Of a DNA stretch of 64,000 nt, positions 3,654 through 52,438 are shown one piece after another. The notes beneath the pieces are model-generated. The model searched no databases. It saw nothing but the letters and a program-made list of their open reading frames with translations, and was not told the DNA's origin. The DNA comes from Escherichia coli O157 typing phage 14, in sequence record KP869112, one strand, 5' to 3'. The stretch's first letter is position 1; the number at the start of each line of letters is the position of its first letter. The translations under genes were made by a program, and so were the position numbers.

Positions 3654-3719
3654 TACTTGACAAAAGCCACAAGGATGTGGCACCCTTAGTTCAAAGACGA
3701 GAACTAAGAGGATTCAGCA

Positions 3720-4880
3720 GTGAGAAAACTTACAACCGAAGATTTTATAGAGGGGGCGAAAGCAGTTCATGGTGATAAATATGATTATTCCAAAGTCAAA
3801 TATGTGGGTGCACACACCAAGGTTGTAATTATATGCCCTGAGCATGGAGAATTTAAGAAAACTCTTGGAGATCACCTCCGTAAAAAACAGGGTTGCCCAA
3901 AATGTCAGATTGAAGCAGAAAGAGCGGCTTCTGCTGAAAAATTTAAAGCGGAGGCCGAGGCTAAGTATAATTATAAATATGATTACTCTAAGGTAGAGTA
4001 TGTAAATGCTAAAACTAAAGTTGTGATTGTTTGTCCTGTTCACGGCGAGTTTGAGCAAAAGCCTTATAACCATCTCCGCGAGGGGGGTTGCCGTAAGTGT
4101 GGAGGGACTGAGAGAAAGACTACTGAAGAGTGGATCGCTGAGGCAAAAGCGCTTCATGGCGATAAGTATGATTACTCTCTTGTAAATTATAAAACCTGTA
4201 ATGATAAAGTGGAGATAATCTGTAATACATGTGGTGCTCACTTCCCACAAAGACCTCATGACCATGCACCAAGTGGAAACGGTTGCCCCGAGTGCGGGAA
4301 GAAGAAGGTGGCCGAGGTTAGTAGGAAGACGCAGAGAAAGAAAGCATCTGAGGTAGCTAAAAGGTTTGAGGCAAGAGCCAGAGCTATCCATAAAGATAAA
4401 TACGATTATTCCAGGGTGGAATATGTTAATAGGGAGACAGAGGTCACTATCATCTGTCCGATTCACGGGGAGTTCACACAAAAACCGTTTGTCCACATCA
4501 ACCAAAAAGCTGGCTGTCAAAAATGTGCTAAAGTCGGCTTCTTATCTCATGAACATGGTAGCCTTTATATCATGGTTGACGATCTGGAAGTACCAACTAT
4601 GATGAAAATTGGTGTGAGTGTCCGGGTAGATGAACGAAGAAAAGATGTGTTAAAAAGAGCTAAAAAAGCTGGTGCTAGATTCTCTGATCTACATGTTATA
4701 AAAACTTGGGAAGGAACAACAGACGACATGCAAACTTTAGAAAAAGCTATGCACCAAGCCTTGAGCCAATACAAAATCAACTTCACAGAGAAGTTTGATG
4801 GCTGTCGAGAGTTCTTCTACTACAGACCGGAGGTATTCGAGCTAGTAGAAGAACATTTGAAGAAATTTGCTAATAAATAA
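3720..4880 (+). CDS. homing-endonuclease-like protein: four tandem zinc-ribbon repeats plus C-terminal T5orf172/GIY-YIG-like domain
   Basis: Four ~60 aa repeats KYDYSxVxY...IICPxHGEFxQxPxxH...GCxxC; C-terminus SLYIMVDD...KIGVS...GCREFFY resembles T5orf172; inserted between nrdD and nrdG; GTG start with AAGAGGA RBS. Confidence 0.6.
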   Translation: MRKLTTEDFIEGAKAVHGDKYDYSKVKYVGAHTKVVIICPEHGEFKKTLGDHLRKKQGCPKCQIEAERAASAEKFKAEAEAKYNYKYDYSKVEYVNAKTKVVIVCPVHGEFEQKPYNHLREGGCRKCGGTERKTTEEWIAEAKALHGDKYDYSLVNYKTCNDKVEIICNTCGAHFPQRPHDHAPSGNGCPECGKKKVAEVSRKTQRKKASEVAKRFEARARAIHKDKYDYSRVEYVNRETEVTIICPIHGEFTQKPFVHINQKAGCQKCAKVGFLSHEHGSLYIMVDDLEVPTMMKIGVSVRVDERRKDVLKRAKKAGARFSDLHVIKTWEGTTDDMQTLEKAMHQALSQYKINFTEKFDGCREFFYYRPEVFELVEEHLKKFANK

Positions 4881-7364: not shown

Positions 7365-8414
7365 ATGAATTTAACACCTCGCAGCACCATGGTACACGGC
7401 ATGAAAGAAAAACAGAACGGTTTCGAACCTATGAGTAATAAAATGTTTGGTATGCCGGGTGGTATTATGGAAACATACAGCTACCCAACACCTGTTGTTG
7501 ACCACGTTCTTTATATCGACGATTTGGAAGACTTACAAGATCATATGTCTCGTCTGCAGACGATCCGTATGGCTCAGCCGGAAGAAAGCATTCGGGTGAT
7601 CATCAATAGCCCTGGGGGTTGCGTGCACATTGCAATGGCTTATCTGCAGGCATTCCGCGAGTCTCAGGCAAGCGTTGTTGCACATGCTGAAGGGATGTGC
7701 TGCTCTGCTGGAACAATCTTATGGCTTGGTTGTAAAGAACGTACTGTGGCTCCGGACACAGAATTTATGTTCCACTACTATCAAGGTGGCACTTATGGTA
7801 ACGGTGTGAACATGAATACTCAGGTCAGCTACTGGAAAAAACGTTTTGAACGCCTGATCGAAAAATACTACGGTGGGGTGCTGACAGAAGATGAGATCGC
7901 ATCCATCACAGCTGGTGGCGAAGTGTGGTTGGACGGAGAAGAGCTGGCAGCACGCACTGGAGCTATTATTCTGGATGAAGGCAACATACAACGCATCCAG
8001 AACGGACAAAAACCGAAAAAGCTTCTGGCAAAAGGTGATGAAGAGGGCGTGTTAGGTGAAGCAGGTCTTCCGGAGATTCACCAGTGCACATCTTTAGATG
8101 AGTTAGTTCATGCTGTTGAATCTGCAAAAGCGGGTGGTTCGAAAGGTGATGTTCACACTGTGTTCCTGAATCTGCAGATGGAAAGTGGCGAGACCGTCCG
8201 AATTGCCCTGGGTGAGATTACTTCAGAAGATCTGCAGAGATTCTCTGTCGTTGAACTTCAGGATATTCTGTCTCAATTGAAGACTACTCTGAACGGCGGT
8301 GAAGAGGTTAAGGTGAAAGATAAGACTCGCAAGCGTCTGGTGGATAATATTATTAAAACAGCAAAAGAGCTCAATGAAAAAATCCTGGGCGCAGGAATTG
8401 TCGAAGAAGTTTAA
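7365..8414 (+). CDS. ClpP/S14-family serine protease-like protein with ~140 aa C-terminal extension
   Basis: INSPGG motif, candidate catalytic Ser in GMCCSAGT and His in FMFHYYQGG, matching ClpP fold order; RBS AAGGA. Confidence 0.7.
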   Translation: MNLTPRSTMVHGMKEKQNGFEPMSNKMFGMPGGIMETYSYPTPVVDHVLYIDDLEDLQDHMSRLQTIRMAQPEESIRVIINSPGGCVHIAMAYLQAFRESQASVVAHAEGMCCSAGTILWLGCKERTVAPDTEFMFHYYQGGTYGNGVNMNTQVSYWKKRFERLIEKYYGGVLTEDEIASITAGGEVWLDGEELAARTGAIILDEGNIQRIQNGQKPKKLLAKGDEEGVLGEAGLPEIHQCTSLDELVHAVESAKAGGSKGDVHTVFLNLQMESGETVRIALGEITSEDLQRFSVVELQDILSQLKTTLNGGEEVKVKDKTRKRLVDNIIKTAKELNEKILGAGIVEEV

Positions 8415-36291: not shown

Positions 36292-36750
36292 TCAACACTT
36301 TTTGTACTCCACCACGACAATATCTATGTCGAAAGTGGCAAGGTTAATAACGTCCTCTACGTGTTCCCACTTCAAACCGCCTATGCCGCACCCGATCTTA
36401 GGGATGTAGAATGGTAAAGTCGATCCGCTGAATACTTCATTGACTAGCTCAAAGCCTTTCAGGATTGAGAAATACTCAGCATTAGGTCCTGGGTAGAACT
36501 GGGTATATAGATTGATTCCGTAGACAATACCTATCGGAGATAAGTGCTCCCATCGGGAGAACGCACCCAGTTTACTTAGGCAACCGTATCTAGTCTCTTT
36601 GTCGGCTGACAGTGCTTGAGGAAACTCACGGGCAATCTGTTTTGCTATACCCTTGCCCATTGTGTGGAAGCAGTTACAACCGTGGATCAGGTGACCAGCA
36701 CCGCTCTTAAAAAGGGAGATTAAATCTCCCTCTACAGTATCAATAATCAC
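36292..36750 (-). CDS. macro domain protein (ADP-ribose binding/processing)
   Basis: GTG start with GAGGAG RBS; VIIDTVEGDLISL...AGHLIHGCNCFHTMGKGIAKQI and FYIPKIGCGIGGL match macro-domain glycine-rich motifs; ORF-track start 36831 overlaps upstream gene. Confidence 0.65.
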   Translation of the reverse strand: MIIDTVEGDLISLFKSGAGHLIHGCNCFHTMGKGIAKQIAREFPQALSADKETRYGCLSKLGAFSRWEHLSPIGIVYGINLYTQFYPGPNAEYFSILKGFELVNEVFSGSTLPFYIPKIGCGIGGLKWEHVEDVINLATFDIDIVVVEYKKC

Positions 36751-37165
36751 GGTAAGCCAGCTCCTCTTCCGCAATTTCAAAAAACTCAGTCCAGCACTGT
36801 GGCATATTGGAGTTACCGAAGTGGCTTTCATAGTAAAGGTTCTTACCGCTAGGAAGGTAGAAATCTGTTACCTCATAAAATCCACAATCGTCGCACTCAC
36901 CTTCTTCAAACTTGGCCTTAACCTTAATACCGAGGAAGGTGAAAAGTTTATGGACATCTTCAGTTTCGAACTCCCAGGGAATGTTGTTTTCCGCATCGGT
37001 GTAGAACTGGATCAGCAGACCATTGTCCAGTTTACCAAAATACTCTGTGAAGTAACTTCCTTCCCAGAAATCTTTATGACAAATAATATCCATGCGTTTG
37101 CCCATAATAATGGTGTGAGCGTTTTGGGCATCGTCACGAATCAGTTTTGGCATTTCATAGATCAT
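36740..37165 (-). CDS. hypothetical protein
   Basis: RBS GGAGAA. Confidence 0.5.
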   Translation of the reverse strand: MIYEMPKLIRDDAQNAHTIIMGKRMDIICHKDFWEGSYFTEYFGKLDNGLLIQFYTDAENNIPWEFETEDVHKLFTFLGIKVKAKFEEGECDDCGFYEVTDFYLPSGKNLYYESHFGNSNMPQCWTEFFEIAEEELAYRDY

Positions 37166-37962: not shown

Positions 37963-37991
37963 CAAAAATGCCCCACCCTTTCGGGCAGGGC
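37963..37991 (-). terminator. intrinsic terminator (GCCCTGCCC-GAAA-GGGTGGGGC + UUUUUG on minus strand)
   Basis: Hairpin with GAAA tetraloop and U tract 3' of the 38007 gene; identical hairpin recurs at 48099. Confidence 0.65.
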
Positions 37992-38006: not shown

Positions 38007-39233
38007 TTAAAACGGTATGTCATCATCAAAGGCGTACTGTGCTGGATTCTGATCCATCGGGTCATCTTCCTCATCATTTACAGGAGGAGCGTCTACAGTG
38101 TTTTGCTGTGGAGCTGCTTCCTGTTTGGCAGCCTGAGGTTCTTGATGGTCAGTTGACCCAGCACCGTTCTTGATCCAATCGTACAACGGCTCAGCCAGAT
38201 TAGTCAAGACATCTTTTGCTTCTGCAGTAATTGCCACTGCAAAATCATCAACTTTCGTTTTCTTGTCAATACGGCGACAAGCGTTCAACACCGCATTACC
38301 GACACTGGCACCTACTTCATCTTCAGTTCGGTTGGTGGCTTGAGCATACTCTTTCTTAAGCTCAATAGTGACTACGTGTAGTGTTTTAGCCACTCCTAGT
38401 GGGTCGTCTACCTTAAACCCGCGATCCAGGATGATTTGCAACGCATTGATGCTATGCCCCGTTTCCACACCGATAGGGTCGTAAGAGGATTTACGCTTGC
38501 CACCAGAGCCTTGAGTGCCGTTCTCTGCCTTAGGAGGATAGGCCTTGAAACCACTGATAATGTTTCCGGTGTCTTTGTCAACAATGGCTGCAACACGACC
38601 ACCTACCACCAGGTCTTTAAGCTGCTCATCAGTTACAACCATAGCACCTTCGCCAATCTTGTGGTCATTAACAGTAACCACGTTGCCAACAATCTGAGTC
38701 ACATCACCATAGATGCGTAAAACGTCCTGATTGGCATTCTGCTGAGGTTTCTGCTTCTGGCCTTGTGATTGTGCACCTTGTTGCTGTTTTTGCTGCTGAG
38801 TCGCTGCTGGAGCCTCTCCTGCACCCAGCTTAACCATCTTAGCCAGTGAGCCCTTGTAATAGGTCTTACCGTTATGCTCGTTTGCCTTCAAAGGGATATT
38901 TACGATCCATCCTGGCGTTACGGTTTCCCACTTGTCATCAATCTTAACAGAGACAGAGTCTTGATGACCTGGTTTAAGCAGCTTATCACCCATGCTGATC
39001 CAGACTTCTTCACCACCTTGAAGCAGGTTATCAGAGGAATCCAGTTCAGAAATCAGTAAAGAGATGGTGTGGCTGGATTCAATTTTCTTACCTTGCCACA
39101 CAGTGGTTTTAATACCTGTTGTAGGATCAGCACCTTTGATAGGCTTGATGCTAACACGTTTAATCATGCCGTGAGCCAGTAAAACAGTTTCACGCGGATT
39201 CATTGGGTTAGCGAATTGTTGAATAACGCTCAT
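38007..39233 (-). CDS. putative ssDNA-binding protein (SSB-like acidic C-terminal tail)
   Basis: C-terminus ends DDDIPF, the hallmark tail of bacterial SSB; Gln/Gly-rich linker; RBS AAGGAGA; N-terminal fold not verified. Confidence 0.45.
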   Translation of the reverse strand: MSVIQQFANPMNPRETVLLAHGMIKRVSIKPIKGADPTTGIKTTVWQGKKIESSHTISLLISELDSSDNLLQGGEEVWISMGDKLLKPGHQDSVSVKIDDKWETVTPGWIVNIPLKANEHNGKTYYKGSLAKMVKLGAGEAPAATQQQKQQQGAQSQGQKQKPQQNANQDVLRIYGDVTQIVGNVVTVNDHKIGEGAMVVTDEQLKDLVVGGRVAAIVDKDTGNIISGFKAYPPKAENGTQGSGGKRKSSYDPIGVETGHSINALQIILDRGFKVDDPLGVAKTLHVVTIELKKEYAQATNRTEDEVGASVGNAVLNACRRIDKKTKVDDFAVAITAEAKDVLTNLAEPLYDWIKNGAGSTDHQEPQAAKQEAAPQQNTVDAPPVNDEEDDPMDQNPAQYAFDDDIPF

Positions 39234-39598
39234 TATTTGTCTCCTTGTTCTTCGTTAGTGCTTGCCGTGTGTGCGAACCCTGCTTGAATTAATTTGTCCT
39301 GAACTTGAGCCAACAGGCCCATTGCAAAACTTGTGGTCCCAGAGAGGGCCATCAGCATATCCCGTTGTTGAGCTACCCAACCTAAGGCATAGTCCAAACG
39401 ACGATATTTTTCTTCTTCACGCAAAGCTTGGAATAATTGTTCAGCCTCTGGCTGTTGTGTGAGCTCCTGAAGTCTTCCCATGAAAGAAGAAAGCACTAGC
39501 AGAAGAGACACTTGATCTTTACTTAACCCTAAGAAAAATTCTTGAGGTTGTTCTTGCTCGTTCATCGCAACCGACGCTTGATCGTTCATTTGTTCCAT
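39233..39598 (-). CDS. hypothetical protein
   Basis: RBS CGGAGA. Confidence 0.5.
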   Translation of the reverse strand: MEQMNDQASVAMNEQEQPQEFFLGLSKDQVSLLLVLSSFMGRLQELTQQPEAEQLFQALREEEKYRRLDYALGWVAQQRDMLMALSGTTSFAMGLLAQVQDKLIQAGFAHTASTNEEQGDK

Positions 39599-39681
39599 TA
39601 TGGAATCTCCGATTTTATTTGAACAACATAGAAGGAGACACTATTTTAGCATCCCCTTCTGTAAATTACAATAGGTATTTG

Positions 39682-42411: not shown

Positions 42412-45189
42412 TTAGTGACAATCACCCCAGTTACGACCACACAAGTATTCACCTGTGATCTGGAACGGGACTCCCATCATTTTAGAAGCTTGCCAGAAGC
42501 AATGCACCACCATTTCACCTACAGGGCTCCAGATAAGTTCAAGCTTTCCGTCATCGTTCAGGATAGGATCGTACACCGTGTTTCCGTCTCTGTCAACCAC
42601 TTCGTTTCCGTCCTCATCCTTGCGTGCCTTTTTGTACTTATGACCGTCGAACACATGAAGTTTGGCCTCCTGCTCTGCCTTAAATGCTTCCAGTTCTTCA
42701 ATTGTGTCGAAGGTGTACACAGTCTTATACTTCGGTGTGTCAGGCACTTGAAGCTGATATTCGTCATGGTAATAGATAATACGACGGACACCTTCATCGT
42801 ACCACCCACGCTTCACCATTTGGTGGTGCATGAGTATCCCAACTAAGTCACACAGCGATGCACCACCATTCTGTTGGTATGCATTAAGTAAAGAGTGTTT
42901 AGATCGGGTCCAGATAGCATGACCATCAAAAGAGTAGATAAACTTCTTACCTGTTGCTTCCCAGAATTTCTCCAGATCCTCTTTGCGCCCCTTAAGACCA
43001 GGGTTGGCATCCCAGAGTGCATCGATTACCCTTTGTCCCAACTCTGGAGAGATGTCCAGCATATCTGCAACTTTATCTTTTTGTGCCCCGTACATAACCC
43101 CATACGTGATAGGTTTACCGTCGTTACGAGACACCTCTCTGCCTGCTACTTTTGTATATGCCTCAGCATTGTTTTGGTGTGCGTCCCCGTTACTTACAAC
43201 ATCATAATACAAGCCGTTGTCGAACTCAAAGGCACCCCAAGCCCCGATAAGCTGCTCTAAGTTGGACCCGTCAATACCGATCTCAAAGTATCCAGGAGGA
43301 ACACCCCACAAGCTACGCATCTCCTTACCCATAACCACTTTAGGAGAGGGTTTAGGCATGTTTGCACAAATGCTGTGTTTCTGTCTGGAAGTGTTTGTTA
43401 ATCCGGAGCTTTTAGCAGGAAGCTTATGGTCAATCTTCAAGCGTGGGTGATTAAGAAGACCAGTATCAACCTTATCCTCCTTGATTGGATCAAGGACCGA
43501 TCTGCGGTTTCGCAATGATAACCACAAGACGATATCCTTAGCCATCTCTCCGTTCAATTTTTCAAGATTCGGACATAGGTGTCCAAACGTATCTTTCAGT
43601 TGCGGAGAAGTAATAAGTGCCCTAGCTTTTCTACGTATTTTCCCGAATACTTCCTTTTTAATCCTTTCGGAGTTAGGAAAGCTTCGGAACTTGTGCACTG
43701 TTGTCTGAAACTTAGCATCAGTTTTGTTCCAGAAGTTGATAATTAGGTCACAATACTCTGACTCTAAAAGCTCGTCCATGTATGCATATACTCGTGCATC
43801 AACATCTGCATCAGGTAGAGCTTTCTTCTTGCTGTCTTTAGTTACATCCTTAGTTCTCCACATTGTCGGAAGCCAACCAGCACTGATCAGGTATCGCTTA
43901 ATGTCGTCCTGATTGCTGATTTTCATAGGTATCTTGCAGTCCGGCATTCGCTTCTGCTGTAGATCACTTATTGCCTGATCCATCAGCTCTTTAGGTAAAG
44001 GTTGTGGTGTGGAAGTGCCCTTAATATAGCCTCTCAAGAAATCAGCCATCTTATCAGGGTCTTTGCAGCCCATCTCTTCACACCATTTTATCCCCATCTT
44101 ACTGACATCTCCTGTGGAGGTAAATGCTCGCTTAGGCTGGGCTTTGAACTCTAAAGCGCTCATGTCTACAGGATAGCCAAGCTTATCTTTTAACCATTTC
44201 CAACCATTATTGGAGATTGTCCCATCTTGGTTAAACGGCTTTTCAGGGAACTTGGGCCGCTGAGACATTGACAGCTCTTTTAAAGGTAGTTGTGGTTCAA
44301 CACGATCAGCTATTTCTTTCATCCACGCATCACAACGGTCACGTAAAGCAATAGCTCCATCTATGTCAAAATACACACCCTGACGGGCCTGCAGCTCCAT
44401 CAGGAAGTGCTGCAGCATGCCTCGGCGTAGTGCGTTCTTCCAGGTGATCTTCTTGAACCCTTTCGGCTTCTCTTTGGCAGGATCGTACATAAAGTTCTGC
44501 ATGTCAGATTTGCCGTAGAATACACCTTTTGATTCCGCTACCAGCTCTTTCCAGAGCAGCTCCTGGATGATAACGTCCTCGAATACACGATCCACATACT
44601 TCCACAATGGAAGATCGCGCCAGTCATCAATTTGAACTTTCTGGTTACCAAGGGCGTAGCCCCATGCCATAAGGCCGTGAGGACCAACAGGCTGCATTTT
44701 CTTAGTAACCGGGTTGAATACGGAGTCCGGACAACCTTTTGGTAAAGGGCGATCAGGCCACAAGATTCGGCTCATCGCCAACGTATCAAACAGGTTAACC
44801 TGGTGGTCGTTGATAGTCCCCATACATTTAGGATCACGGAACATATCAAAATGAATACCGGATAATCTCTCCATCAGCATAAAGTCATAACTGTAGCAGT
44901 TATGGCAGTTCAAAGCTGTTGGTGACCAGTCGGAATTTCCTGTAAGCCAACCTTCCAACTCCGAAAAATCTGCTATGCGAACTTCAAAATCCTTATAAAG
45001 AGTTTTCTTTGCCAGAATAAAGTTCTTGGCCTTCTCTATATCCTCCTCGGAGTAGTGTGTGCGGTCATTCAGAGGAAGGAACAGCATAAAACGGTTCTTA
45101 TTCAGCTCTTTAAACAGGCCGCAGTGATAATAAAGATCTGGGTCTTCCAGCAAACCGGATGACTCAAAATCGAACGACCACATGCTCAT
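42412..45189 (-). CDS. DNA polymerase, family A (Pol I-like) with 3'-5' exonuclease domain
   Basis: 925 aa; N-terminal exo motif FDFESSG; motif B KPITYGVMYGAQ; motif C YYHDEYQL; RBS AAGGAGAA. Confidence 0.9.
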   Translation of the reverse strand: MSMWSFDFESSGLLEDPDLYYHCGLFKELNKNRFMLFLPLNDRTHYSEEDIEKAKNFILAKKTLYKDFEVRIADFSELEGWLTGNSDWSPTALNCHNCYSYDFMLMERLSGIHFDMFRDPKCMGTINDHQVNLFDTLAMSRILWPDRPLPKGCPDSVFNPVTKKMQPVGPHGLMAWGYALGNQKVQIDDWRDLPLWKYVDRVFEDVIIQELLWKELVAESKGVFYGKSDMQNFMYDPAKEKPKGFKKITWKNALRRGMLQHFLMELQARQGVYFDIDGAIALRDRCDAWMKEIADRVEPQLPLKELSMSQRPKFPEKPFNQDGTISNNGWKWLKDKLGYPVDMSALEFKAQPKRAFTSTGDVSKMGIKWCEEMGCKDPDKMADFLRGYIKGTSTPQPLPKELMDQAISDLQQKRMPDCKIPMKISNQDDIKRYLISAGWLPTMWRTKDVTKDSKKKALPDADVDARVYAYMDELLESEYCDLIINFWNKTDAKFQTTVHKFRSFPNSERIKKEVFGKIRRKARALITSPQLKDTFGHLCPNLEKLNGEMAKDIVLWLSLRNRRSVLDPIKEDKVDTGLLNHPRLKIDHKLPAKSSGLTNTSRQKHSICANMPKPSPKVVMGKEMRSLWGVPPGYFEIGIDGSNLEQLIGAWGAFEFDNGLYYDVVSNGDAHQNNAEAYTKVAGREVSRNDGKPITYGVMYGAQKDKVADMLDISPELGQRVIDALWDANPGLKGRKEDLEKFWEATGKKFIYSFDGHAIWTRSKHSLLNAYQQNGGASLCDLVGILMHHQMVKRGWYDEGVRRIIYYHDEYQLQVPDTPKYKTVYTFDTIEELEAFKAEQEAKLHVFDGHKYKKARKDEDGNEVVDRDGNTVYDPILNDDGKLELIWSPVGEMVVHCFWQASKMMGVPFQITGEYLCGRNWGDCH

Positions 45190-45247: not shown

Positions 45248-47326
45248 TTAAAAAGGTGTTTCATCATCCTCAAAACCAGGAACATGGTCAGAGGACGGAT
45301 CATCGTACTGGAGGTCTTCCTGCGTGTCAACAGGCTTAACAGTAGGAGTTACAACCTTATCAGCCACAACCTTGCCCATAGGTGTTTCTACAACTGCATG
45401 CTCCTGATCCTCAAACATAGCCTGAGGTCTCCAAACAACCTCCCCACCTTCTCCATCTGTAAACATTTGCATTTCTTTGTCCCAGTACCAATTACTGGCA
45501 TCATGGAACTTACCTGTATGTGGGTCCATAACCAAAGTGTCTGCAATACCCAATGTTTTTGCTGGACGGTTTTTAAGACCTACTAAACGGACACGCCCAC
45601 GAGAACGATCCACCATTTCTTCGGCCTCGACACCTATGACTACCCAACTCAACTGTTCAAGCCCAGCCGATCCTCGCAAATTCTCTTTTCGCACAGGATA
45701 CCAGAAAGGTAACGGGTTACCATCCTTGTCTTTAGGAGGCACAATCTCTGTACGTTTGAGGTGAGCGATCACCAAGATAAACACATTAAACTGCTTACAA
45801 AACGCAGCCAGTTGGGTCATAGCTATGTCCAGTTCTTTTCGCTCATCCTTAACATTAAGACCTGAAATTACCATGGACAGGTGATCCAGCACAATATAAC
45901 GACAATGGTACAGGCAAACCATTTGCTTAAGCTTGGTAATCAACTCGTCCACCGGAATAGATCCGAAATGTTTGAACACTTTGATTTTTCCAGCTTTTGC
46001 CCATGATTGGTGAATCTCTGCGTGTTCTTGATCAGTTAAAAACTGGCTAGGATCTTCAACAAACTCTTTAACATCAAACCCTAACTGGTTTGCATACAAG
46101 GAGTTAATTGCTTCCTCTGGGTCCTCCTCAAGATGGATCATGCATAGACGATCATCCTCTTCGTAGTCATCGGCCTTCGGGCATGTCGGGTCCATCAAGT
46201 ATCTTGCAATACAATGTTCCAGTTTTTTAGCTACAGTTGTTTTACCGCCCCCTGATGGCCCTGTAAGCATTACGAGTGTCCCTTTGTGCAAGCCTTTTAG
46301 CATTTTTTGCAGTTTTGGGAACTCTGCACTGATATCTACCCCGTTGGAAGTCTTTTTCCGCAAAGACTCGATAGAGAAGTCTTCTAAATCCGACACAGCA
46401 TCAGGCACATATTTAACAGGGTGCCGGAACATGTTGACAATATCTTCCAGCTTTTTAGCCTTCAGCATGTCTCGGATATCTTTTACACCGTCAGGGTCAT
46501 TTACTTCACCAGGGTATTCTACGTGGTAAACGTTATCAGCCATCAAAAATGCTGCGATATTGTGCGTGGCCTCAACACCTTTAATGACGTGTTTTTGCTT
46601 CTCTACCTCGTTAGCTGCATCGTTATCCATTGCCAGCACAACTGTTCCATAGCTACGGATAAACTTCTCATTGTTTGCAAAAGTATCTACTGCGTTTGCA
46701 CATCCACAGTTAATTCCAACAAAAGGCAGGCAGGGTTTTCCTGCCAGATCACCACCGTTGATAACTGCGTCGATCCCGTCCTGGACCTCTTTAGCCCACT
46801 GCTTCACCTTTGCCGGGGCTTTAGCGTTGGTGAGAATCCCTTTTACTTGTATCTGATATGCAGCCTGCCATGCTGCAATAACATCACCTTCTCCCTCACA
46901 AACGTTAATCTGCTTACGGTTGTTGGAAGATGCACACAGCTTTTGACCAAACATCTGGGAGTTGGCCTTTACGATGCCAACAACGGAGAAATGGCCCCTT
47001 TGCTCTTTAGGAATAGTCCAGTCACGCTTTTTGAAACCAGACAGATTTCCATAGCGGTCGTAATATGGGAAATATGTTGCAGTGACTGTCACACCGTCTT
47101 CTTGGGACAATGCTGATCGCACACCAAAATATTGTGCAGCCATAAGACCGATATTTTGTTGTGGGACAGGGACAATTTTAGTATTTTCTAAAACAGTCTC
47201 TACAGTTTCAACTTCTTTTTCATCACGATAGTCTCGTTTCACACTTCCCCCACTTTTATACTTAGTTGCTTTCGGGTTTGGCTCACCGAAACGGTTGTAT
47301 GCAGATGCCATAAATTTACTTCCCAT
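45248..47326 (-). CDS. DNA primase-helicase (TOPRIM primase fused to DnaB-like helicase, T7 gp4-like)
   Basis: TOPRIM motifs CEGEGD and MDNDAANE; helicase Walker A LTGPSGGGKTT and Walker B IVLDHLS. Confidence 0.85.
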   Translation of the reverse strand: MGSKFMASAYNRFGEPNPKATKYKSGGSVKRDYRDEKEVETVETVLENTKIVPVPQQNIGLMAAQYFGVRSALSQEDGVTVTATYFPYYDRYGNLSGFKKRDWTIPKEQRGHFSVVGIVKANSQMFGQKLCASSNNRKQINVCEGEGDVIAAWQAAYQIQVKGILTNAKAPAKVKQWAKEVQDGIDAVINGGDLAGKPCLPFVGINCGCANAVDTFANNEKFIRSYGTVVLAMDNDAANEVEKQKHVIKGVEATHNIAAFLMADNVYHVEYPGEVNDPDGVKDIRDMLKAKKLEDIVNMFRHPVKYVPDAVSDLEDFSIESLRKKTSNGVDISAEFPKLQKMLKGLHKGTLVMLTGPSGGGKTTVAKKLEHCIARYLMDPTCPKADDYEEDDRLCMIHLEEDPEEAINSLYANQLGFDVKEFVEDPSQFLTDQEHAEIHQSWAKAGKIKVFKHFGSIPVDELITKLKQMVCLYHCRYIVLDHLSMVISGLNVKDERKELDIAMTQLAAFCKQFNVFILVIAHLKRTEIVPPKDKDGNPLPFWYPVRKENLRGSAGLEQLSWVVIGVEAEEMVDRSRGRVRLVGLKNRPAKTLGIADTLVMDPHTGKFHDASNWYWDKEMQMFTDGEGGEVVWRPQAMFEDQEHAVVETPMGKVVADKVVTPTVKPVDTQEDLQYDDPSSDHVPGFEDDETPF

Positions 47327-50726: not shown

Positions 50727-51071
50727 TTACTGCTCAAGGTCTTCAGAGTCAAGCTCAAAAAGAATCAAACTGTGCATGCCTGCAGAGAGATCAACACACC
50801 CTGCAACAATAAGGGTTTGATAGTAAGGTTCAGCACCCTCAATGTCTTCGTTAAAATCCACAACAAGGTAGTCACCTTTGTTAAAGGTGTATTTGTCCGA
50901 TGTAAACGCAAAACCTGCCCAGTCCCCTACTGCAGGATCTTTATCAGTCACCTTTGTTAGCAGTAGATCTTTTTCACGAGATCTTTTAGTAAAATCGTGA
51001 ATCACAACATCCTTCTCTTCAGGAGTTGGATTGCCGCACACGTAGTTAACGATATTTCTCCACAAACTCAT
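50727..51071 (-). CDS. hypothetical protein
   Basis: RBS AGAGGGGGA; start overlaps helicase stop. Confidence 0.45.
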   Translation of the reverse strand: MSLWRNIVNYVCGNPTPEEKDVVIHDFTKRSREKDLLLTKVTDKDPAVGDWAGFAFTSDKYTFNKGDYLVVDFNEDIEGAEPYYQTLIVAGCVDLSAGMHSLILFELDSEDLEQ

Positions 51072-52438
51072 ACGTCCCCCTCTTCTGCTCTGGTTTCAAA
51101 ATCTTTCCTGACAATTTTGTCTAAGTCAGGGAATGTTGTATTGTAAAACTCTACGACTCGCGGGTCAACAATAATGTCAACCTCTCTTAGTGGACGCAAC
51201 AAGTTTATTCCTTGTATTGTCTTAACTCTACTCAAAGCGACATACGTCATCCCAGGAGAGAAAGCTCCGTTCTTTCCAAGGTCTAGGTTGTAACAATCTA
51301 GTGTAAGTCCTTGACTTTTATGAGATGTTACGGCGTACCCAGATTTCAGAGGAAGTTGCTTGTATGACCCAATCACTACCCTCTCTATAAACTTCTCCAT
51401 CTTCCTTTCTGCAATGTTGTATCTCTGAGATGGCTTATACTCGTTATTCTCCCACAACCTCTGCTCTATGTCAACCTGTGTTCCATCTTCAAGCTCTACC
51501 ACCACCGCCTTGTTCTTAAATTTAACAATTGTAGCACGTGTTCCGTTAACATAATAAGGTACTTTGTGCGTCGGGTCAACATCGTTGGCGGTTATCATAA
51601 CTTTCATGCCAATTTTCAACTTCATCTCCTGCTCAACTGGCAGGGTGGAGGGAAACTTACCCTTCATTTCACCAGTGTATACCTTCTCTGGGGCGTTGAT
51701 GGCATCATAGAACCTTCTGTTCACTTCCTCTGCTTGTTTGTTGGTGGCGCAAATTGTGAGAGCGTCTGTTGGTACACCTCCTTTGTAACAGCGAGCATTA
51801 AGTTCTGCTACAACCTCTTTTATGCGACGACCCTCACGAACACAGTTGAGCATTGTAGCAAATCGAACAGACTCCTGTCGGAACTGATCTATTAGGGCTA
51901 TGTTGTGGAGGTCAAGCTCTTTCCAAGATTCGGTATAGCAACACAGGTCCGTATGGTAGAAGTTGAAGTAGGCTTCCTTCTCCATAGAAGAGACAACAGG
52001 AGGTGCCTGGTAAAAATCGCCAAACAATATGACCTGTATGCCTCCGAAAGGTTTGTCATTTTTTCGAAGGAAGCGGAGTTTCCTATCCATCTCTATAAAC
52101 TTATCAGCACGGATCATAGAGATTTCATCGATAATTAGGATGGTAAATGCCTTGCTTTTCAAAGGCTTTGCTGTTTTTGCCCTTATTGCGGTCCAGTCCG
52201 ACTCCATGCTCACACCTGCTGCAAGATCGAAGGTTCGGTGTGCTGTTGCTCCATTAACGTTTAAAGCGGCTACCCCTGTCGGGGCAACCGTTATGCAAGA
52301 GTCTCCATACATTGACTGGATCATGTTGATGAGGTACGTCTTCCCACAACCTGCGGGTCCTGAAACGAAGACATTCTCACCGCTCATGATTGCAACGAGG
52401 GCAGCATCTGTGCCTACATCATACTGCCCTTTTTCCAT
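51068..52438 (-). CDS. Dda/Pif1/RecD-like SF1 DNA helicase
   Basis: Walker A GPAGCGKT, Walker B LIIDEISMI, C-terminal SHKSQGLT motif; RBS GAGGAGG. Confidence 0.8.
   Translation of the reverse strand: MEKGQYDVGTDAALVAIMSGENVFVSGPAGCGKTYLINMIQSMYGDSCITVAPTGVAALNVNGATAHRTFDLAAGVSMESDWTAIRAKTAKPLKSKAFTILIIDEISMIRADKFIEMDRKLRFLRKNDKPFGGIQVILFGDFYQAPPVVSSMEKEAYFNFYHTDLCCYTESWKELDLHNIALIDQFRQESVRFATMLNCVREGRRIKEVVAELNARCYKGGVPTDALTICATNKQAEEVNRRFYDAINAPEKVYTGEMKGKFPSTLPVEQEMKLKIGMKVMITANDVDPTHKVPYYVNGTRATIVKFKNKAVVVELEDGTQVDIEQRLWENNEYKPSQRYNIAERKMEKFIERVVIGSYKQLPLKSGYAVTSHKSQGLTLDCYNLDLGKNGAFSPGMTYVALSRVKTIQGINLLRPLREVDIIVDPRVVEFYNTTFPDLDKIVRKDFETRAEEGDV

Follow-up and report, generated by a model that had tools for sequence, protein, structure and literature searches.

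The gene at 38007..39233 on the minus strand of the stretch of DNA analysed in the present study (hereafter named the window; 64,000 nucleotides of Escherichia coli O157 typing phage 14, sequence record KP869112) quite probably encodes a non-canonical replicative SSB (single-stranded DNA-binding protein), in which OB barrels would bind ssDNA (single-stranded DNA), a helical bundle would assemble the subunits and the tip of the tail would recruit host and/or phage partners. The original prediction had left the choice between a phage SSB and a decoy for host proteins. We favour the former on the basis of the predicted OB folds, the conserved position of the gene in the replication region, the lack of any other annotated SSB and an independent prediction in a preprint, and the decoy received no support as the main role. 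An SSB-like protein with a host-type tail is already known, since the preprint gives the same interpretation for a 99% identical orthologue, Bas52_0087 (bioRxiv 10.64898/2026.04.29.721553, 30 April 2026); we found no other paper on the SSB-like protein. What we describe beyond the preprint is the breadth of the family with its short forms, the tip as its most conserved segment, an orphan helical domain, the synteny and an extension beyond the tip. As the protein is in the literature, the added value is limited to how strongly the family conserves the tip, to the helical domain, an orphan that holds the escape mutations described below, to the synteny and to the alleles with a capped tip.

The window is from the genome of a Vequintavirus (an rV5-like myovirus of E. 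coli). The limits given in the original prediction for the gene stood, and the strand could be added: a single ORF occupies the minus strand, running from an ATG start to a TAA stop, and a plus-strand reading was discarded as it contains stops throughout. The ORF encodes 408 amino acids, confirming the predicted length, and its minus-strand translation ends in ...NPAQYAFDDDIPF directly before the stop. An AAGGAG Shine-Dalgarno sequence (39241..39246, minus strand) is located 7 nt 5' of the ATG, which itself overlaps the stop codon of the upstream ORF by one base (TAATG). This upstream ORF (39233..39598, minus strand) encodes an apparently helical product of 121 amino acids and belongs to PHROG 7310 (unknown function); the record of the sister phage JLBYU08 labels its homologue 'putative SSB'. 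A weak sigma-70-like promoter match is present 5' of the two-gene unit (39643..39671, minus strand), such matches being no more frequent than in shuffled sequence. On the 3' side, a consensus scan alone gave a GC-rich hairpin that resembles a terminator, with a T-run behind it (37970..37991, minus strand); it starts 16 nt past the stop and is also kept in rV5.

To describe the architecture we used an AlphaFold2 model built with a 22-sequence alignment, so the folds given below are predictions, together with an alignment of 134 diverged family representatives, from which all of the conservation figures are taken. The model contained confident domains with disordered segments between them; read directly from it, the limits were 1–138 for the first barrel, 139–167 for the Gln-rich linker, 170–232 for the five-strand barrel, 252–354 for the four helices and 361–407 for the disordered tail, close to those used below. 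Residues 1–138 (38820..39233, minus strand) form a beta-barrel predicted with good confidence to be an OB fold, contrary to the original impression that the N-terminal region was not obviously one. In this barrel, three aromatic residues (Trp78, Trp102 and Tyr126) and two basic residues (Lys97 and Lys123) are kept in the family; conserved aromatic and basic residues are of the kinds that touch ssDNA in known SSBs. A disordered Gln-rich linker follows at residues 139–169 (38727..38819, minus strand), with pLDDT values below 50 and 13 glutamines in 31 residues. A Gln/Gly-rich linker had been predicted directly before the tip; such a linker does exist, and is strongly Gln/Gly-rich, but it is this internal one, whereas the stretch before the tip is rich in Gln, Pro and acidic residues. 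Residues 170–235 (38529..38726, minus strand) were modelled as a small barrel of five strands in which a short helix separates strand 3 from strand 4, an OB topology, and the preprint also reads a second OB fold here (10.64898/2026.04.29.721553).

After a short disordered Gly/Lys-rich linker (residues 236–251; 38481..38528, minus strand), the model showed a four-helix bundle at residues 252–356 (38166..38480, minus strand). The bundle is present in nearly all of the family members, carries conserved GxxxGH..N and GAxxG..A motifs and is presumed to be an oligomerization module. The remainder of the protein is a disordered linker rich in Gln, Pro and acidic residues (residues 357–402; 38028..38165, minus strand; pLDDT 33–37) and the DDDIPF tip (residues 403–408; 38010..38027, minus strand); together these last 52 residues (357–408) have a net charge of −12. 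Structural comparison gave bacterial, mitochondrial and RPA-type SSBs as the best matches of the predicted OB folds, and Foldseek comparison with DUF2815 and 'phage ssDNA-binding domain' proteins gave weak matches (E 0.014–0.07). The four-helix bundle modelled alone returned no informative structural relative.

The last six residues are identical with those of E. coli SSB, as the original prediction had claimed, and the identity extends to seven with Phe402 (FDDDIPF). In a six-frame translation of the whole window, DDDIPF occurs only once, at this position, where the chance expectation calculated from the residue frequencies of the window is 4.8e-4 for an occurrence anywhere and 2.4e-5 for one directly before a stop. 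The motif is therefore more than a chance match. The tip is also the most conserved segment of the family, with a mean top-residue frequency of 0.75 compared with 0.40–0.42 in the folded domains, and Pro407 and Phe408 are each 95% conserved. A C-terminal [IVLM]PF was found in 101 of the 134 representatives, 92 of which have two or more acidic residues just before it, and the last 30 residues across the family have a mean net charge of −7. The variants of the tip follow the bacterial consensus (DDDIPF, DDDLPF and EDDIPF), and many family members share the final 11 residues of E. coli SSB, PPMDFDDDIPF. The host tip is a well-documented hub through which at least 17 partners are recruited (PMC7145534, PMC3632105, PMC10164576). 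Judging from sequence comparison, the family copies the bacterial consensus so closely that the constraint on the tip may well come from host pockets.

A search at the DNA level gave 115 phage matches, nearly all Vequintavirus, and in a sample of 60 of these records the identity with the gene was 91.8–99.3%. The protein is identical with FFH2 gp091, and the product of bas52_0087 (QXV84166.1, from Escherichia phage RudolfGeigy, i.e. Bas52) aligned with the ORF of the window over an equal length with 405 of 408 residues identical. PHROG 4477, annotated as 'unknown function', matched it over residues 1–408 (E=2.8e-173). Most of the database records name the protein 'hypothetical', with a few GenBank records and UniRef calling orthologues single-stranded DNA-binding proteins. 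The search of Pfam gave no match at E≤1 and that of the PDB with the protein sequence gave none. The gene was also found, at 97–99% identity with E. coli rV5-like phages, in 16 unannotated 'Campylobacter phage' records (MG0656xx), the host assignment of which looks doubtful.

A word-indexed search gathered 56 relatives, and a family profile run against 1.84 billion cluster representatives gathered 254 clusters (50% identity) at E≤0.001. Most of the members are short forms of 270–300 residues without the middle barrel, which is present in only 36 of the 134 aligned representatives, and the architecture that fits the protein of the window is an OB fold, an optional second OB fold, a four-helix bundle and an acidic tail with an [IVL]PF tip. 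Since most members are short and so few have the middle barrel, the ancestral form was probably an OB fold plus the bundle and the tail, as far as the alignment can tell. None of the 134 family members matched PF00436, and the scattered Pfam hits, each to a single member, included no DNA-binding family. When the family profile was aligned with the OB domain of E. coli SSB using hhalign, the probability was 0.1%, and in a PDB search with a family profile the match with E. coli SSB was confined to the last 28 residues of the latter (E=0.003). T5 SSB was considered as a family member and discarded, as tblastn with a short-form member returned rV5-like phages only. In the Seunavirus Salmonella phage NINP13076, a 144-aa 'single-stranded DNA-binding protein' (L019 1150–1584) consists only of the helical domain and tail of the SSB-like family, suggesting that in this record the gene is split or its start was called wrongly; it was discarded as a second, canonical SSB, being the C-terminal half of the same family.

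The SSB-like gene lies downstream of a set of replication genes on the same, minus, strand: a helicase (51068–52438), a primase (45248–47326) and a family-A DNA polymerase encoded by a single ORF of 925 codons (42412–45189), with a run of small minus-strand ORFs between the polymerase and the SSB-like gene. The order of helicase–primase, family-A polymerase, a few small ORFs and the SSB-like gene was found in the window and three other lineages. Phapecoctavirus ESCO25, which has a short form, shows the same order. In one metagenomic contig (L016), a DnaB_C helicase, DNA_pol_A and four small ORFs precede a short-form gene; in another (L015), a Toprim primase is followed by a 699-aa protein at the polymerase position, with a faint RNase_H_2 hit as its only Pfam match, and by small ORFs and the SSB-like gene. 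The SSB-like proteins of both contigs are short forms ~30% identical with that of the window. No second, canonical SSB was detected in the window, where tblastn with E. coli SSB hit only the tail of the SSB-like protein. The complete annotation of JLBYU08 contains no SSB besides the SSB-like gene and its small upstream neighbour, and lists a ligase, RNase H, exonucleases, primase, helicase and polymerase of its own.

Several other features of the neighbourhood were noted. Homologues of the upstream 121-aa ORF (66% and ~27% identity) lie directly 5' of the gene in all of the long-form lineages examined, and the gene 5' of the short-form ESCO25 homologue is unrelated to it; the 121-aa ORF was thus discarded as a universal partner, being conserved in the long-form lineages only. 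In L015, the gene directly 5' of the SSB-like gene (7837–8001) matches Pfam Phage_T7_Gp5_9. The polymerase of JLBYU08 (L001 2715–5821) is annotated as two CDS ~320 nt apart, spanning ~330 nt more than that of the window, which suggests an insertion or an intron-like element. A gene for a macro-domain protein (Pfam Macro, PHROG 335; 36292–36831, minus strand) belongs to the same run of genes and lies ~1.2 kb further downstream.

With such a set of genes around it, the tip may mainly serve the replisome of the phage itself, that is, the family-A polymerase and the helicase–primase, in the manner of the T7 gp2.5 tail, leaving the identity with the host tip incidental or secondary. This possibility concerns the role of the tip only and is compatible with an SSB. 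The genes are a T7-like set (DnaB/Toprim helicase–primase plus family-A polymerase), the tail of HK620 SSB is needed by a phage partner, Sak4, and removal of the terminal Phe of T7 gp2.5 abolishes the contact with the polymerase and leaves DNA binding unaffected, as quoted in the DARNA preprint. However, the tips of the family track the bacterial consensus, often over 11 residues, a closer likeness than would be needed for a generic acidic tail with a terminal Phe. We therefore regard a tip devoted mainly to the phage replisome as a real possibility, yet lean slightly towards the host pockets.

Not all alleles of the gene end at the tip. In rV5, Bas54 and another lineage, a gene for an HNH homing endonuclease of ~205 residues is inserted exactly after the ...IPF codon (L002 2744–3367, rV5 ORF 213; L006 2114–2737, bas54_0088; L012 2928–3542); the window has no such gene between 37945 and 38006. 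In the alleles carrying it, the SSB-like ORF runs 15 residues past the tip, APVGLQYGKSRIHAL. The extension and the HNH insertion occur in approximately one quarter of the Vequintavirus records (14 of the 60 sampled), including rV5, and the insertion was always accompanied by the extension. Extra substitutions are present just upstream of the HNH junction, suggesting co-conversion of the tail from a donor in which the extension was already present. An extension arising as a by-product of the insertion, providing the ribosome-binding site and start codon of the endonuclease, was discarded, since two phiTE-like lineages have the extension with no endonuclease, its DNA shows synonymous variation, and two further SSBs also bear it, a canonical one from a lambdoid phage and one from a Vibrio phage.

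A query of 27 residues covering the tip and the extension found 603 phage records, 160 of which cover at least 80% of it. Among the carriers are the canonical PF00436 SSB of the lambdoid phage mEpX2, ending in DDDIPFAPVTLPFPRHAIHAI, and the non-Pfam SSB of Vibrio phage K443, ending in DDDIPFAPVGLQFGKKFMHVI. Its consensus is roughly AP[VI][GT]L[QP][FY]-x3-4-[IMF][HY]x[ILV], over ~15 residues, and it was located at L002 2723–2772 (rV5), L010 5172–5218, L013 ~3683–3730, L017 2537–2584 (mEpX2), L018 2537–2584 (K443) and L019 1537–1584. Since it is found on both the mEpX2 and K443 proteins, the extension is, by sequence, a portable post-tip peptide on unrelated phage SSB bodies; we found no paper describing it. 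In co-crystal structures of the SSB tip, the partner pockets need the carboxylate of the terminal Phe. The extension would bury this carboxylate, and an exposed tip is not essential for the viability of the phage, as approximately one quarter of the Vequintavirus alleles, that of rV5 among them, carry the extension. In the window, the stop codon comes directly after the Phe of the tip, with the disordered linker leading to a free C-terminus; the tip of this allele is thus free, as the extension is absent.

The orthologue in Bas52 has a known phenotype. Two mutants of this BASEL phage were isolated as escaping DRT10 (UG17), a reverse-transcriptase defence, and their mutations lie in Bas52_0087, one being D252V and the other Y351C. 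Bas52_0087 expressed alone neither triggered DRT10 nor was toxic, additional wild-type but not mutant protein strengthened restriction during infection, and overexpression of SbcB (exonuclease I) weakened it. The genetic evidence shows that Bas52_0087 is needed to trigger DRT10, a phenotype known for Bas52 only. The preprint authors placed both substitutions at a predicted oligomerization interface and suggested competition with SbcB (all from 10.64898/2026.04.29.721553). The protein of the window keeps both Asp252 and Tyr351, Asp252 being a family-conserved acidic position (0.84), and both lie in the predicted four-helix bundle; with respect to oligomerization, the escape mutations point to the helical domain and not to the OB domains. 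A bolder proposal would combine these observations: the family would be a distinct class of SSB (OB fold plus four-helix module), the host-identical tip of which would divert exonuclease I and other SSB partners from host ssDNA, the diversion and not the coating of DNA would be the signal for DRT10, and the 15-aa peptide might cap or switch the tip. In this complete form we consider the proposal unlikely.

The same data could be read as those of a protein that acts mainly as a decoy or competitor, whose mimicked tip soaks up or displaces host SSB-interacting proteins, especially exonuclease I, thereby protecting phage ends or crippling host repair, with ssDNA coating secondary or absent. A tip identical with that of the host on a body of unrelated sequence has the look of mimicry and not of common ancestry, and both the weakening of DRT10 restriction by SbcB overexpression and the SbcB competition proposed by the authors (10.64898/2026.04.29.721553) would fit. 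However, a decoy has no need of two predicted OB barrels with conserved aromatic residues, nor would it be expected to keep a fixed position in the replication module across lineages whose proteins are only 30% identical; it would also leave the phage with no SSB of its own. Moreover, the protein alone is not toxic to E. coli (10.64898/2026.04.29.721553) and alleles with a buried tip are common. Taken together, the conserved OB features, the fixed position in the replication module and the lack of another SSB make a pure decoy distinctly improbable, although the tip could nevertheless lead to competition for exonuclease I.

Instead of a general SSB, the protein could be a recombination mediator, an annealing factor or a replication-restart adaptor, by comparison with RecO, in which a helical domain comes after an OB fold. 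Such a role is highly improbable. The alignments with RecO span only ~74–84 residues, which corresponds to an OB domain, and nothing resembling RecO appeared in the top 60 hits when the helical bundle was modelled by itself. Moreover, a mediator would have no other annotated SSB on which to act, and RecO binds the SSB tip and does not carry one (PMC7913777).

With a non-canonical replicative SSB as the preferred reading, one or two OB barrels would bind ssDNA at the replication fork of the phage and at recombination intermediates, and the conserved four-helix bundle would join the subunits. The long acidic disordered tail would display the DDDIPF tip identical with that of the host SSB, and the tip may dock in the pockets of SSB-interacting proteins, such as exonuclease I of the host and possibly the T7-like polymerase and helicase–primase of the phage. 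Docking would bring these partners to phage ssDNA and compete with the host SSB for them. Two observations count against this reading: the body has no sequence similarity with canonical SSBs, and the extended alleles have a tip that would be buried. Phage SSBs are emerging as common alarm signals to which bacterial defences such as Retron-Eco8, Hna, AbpAB, DARNA, DRT9 and DRT10 respond. A body unrelated to that of the host protein with an exact host tail offers a clean system for asking whether a defence senses the coating of DNA or the takeover of enzymes of the host, and the alleles in which the tip is naturally capped are a ready-made test.

Compared with E. coli SSB (PF00436), the protein of the window has in common an OB-type fold (here predicted), a disordered linker and the FDDDIPF end. 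It differs in having no detectable sequence similarity in the body and in the additional mini-OB and four-helix bundle, and its oligomerization would presumably occur via helices rather than the OB–OB contacts of E. coli SSB. The T7 gp2.5, Enc34 ORF6 and DUF2815 SSBs are, similarly, phage SSBs with one OB fold and an acidic Phe-ended tail directed to the replisome, and T7-like replication genes surround the gene of the window. However, the structural hits to the DUF2815 type were only weak (E ~0.014) with no sequence match, and the tip of the protein of the window is a copy of the host consensus, not a phage-specific one. HK620 SSB is another phage SSB, the last six residues of which are needed to load a partner (Sak4) on coated ssDNA; it is described as a distant SSB homologue with a diverged tip (NDYPPF), and the surroundings of the gene of the window showed no partner of the Sak4 type. 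The closest known system is Bas52_0087, only three substitutions away and with the same FDDDIPF tip. AlphaFold2 and Phold predicted that protein to be SSB-like, with a pair of OB folds and a disordered C-terminus ending in FDDDIPF like the tip of E. coli SSB (10.64898/2026.04.29.721553), a reading that agrees with the present model.
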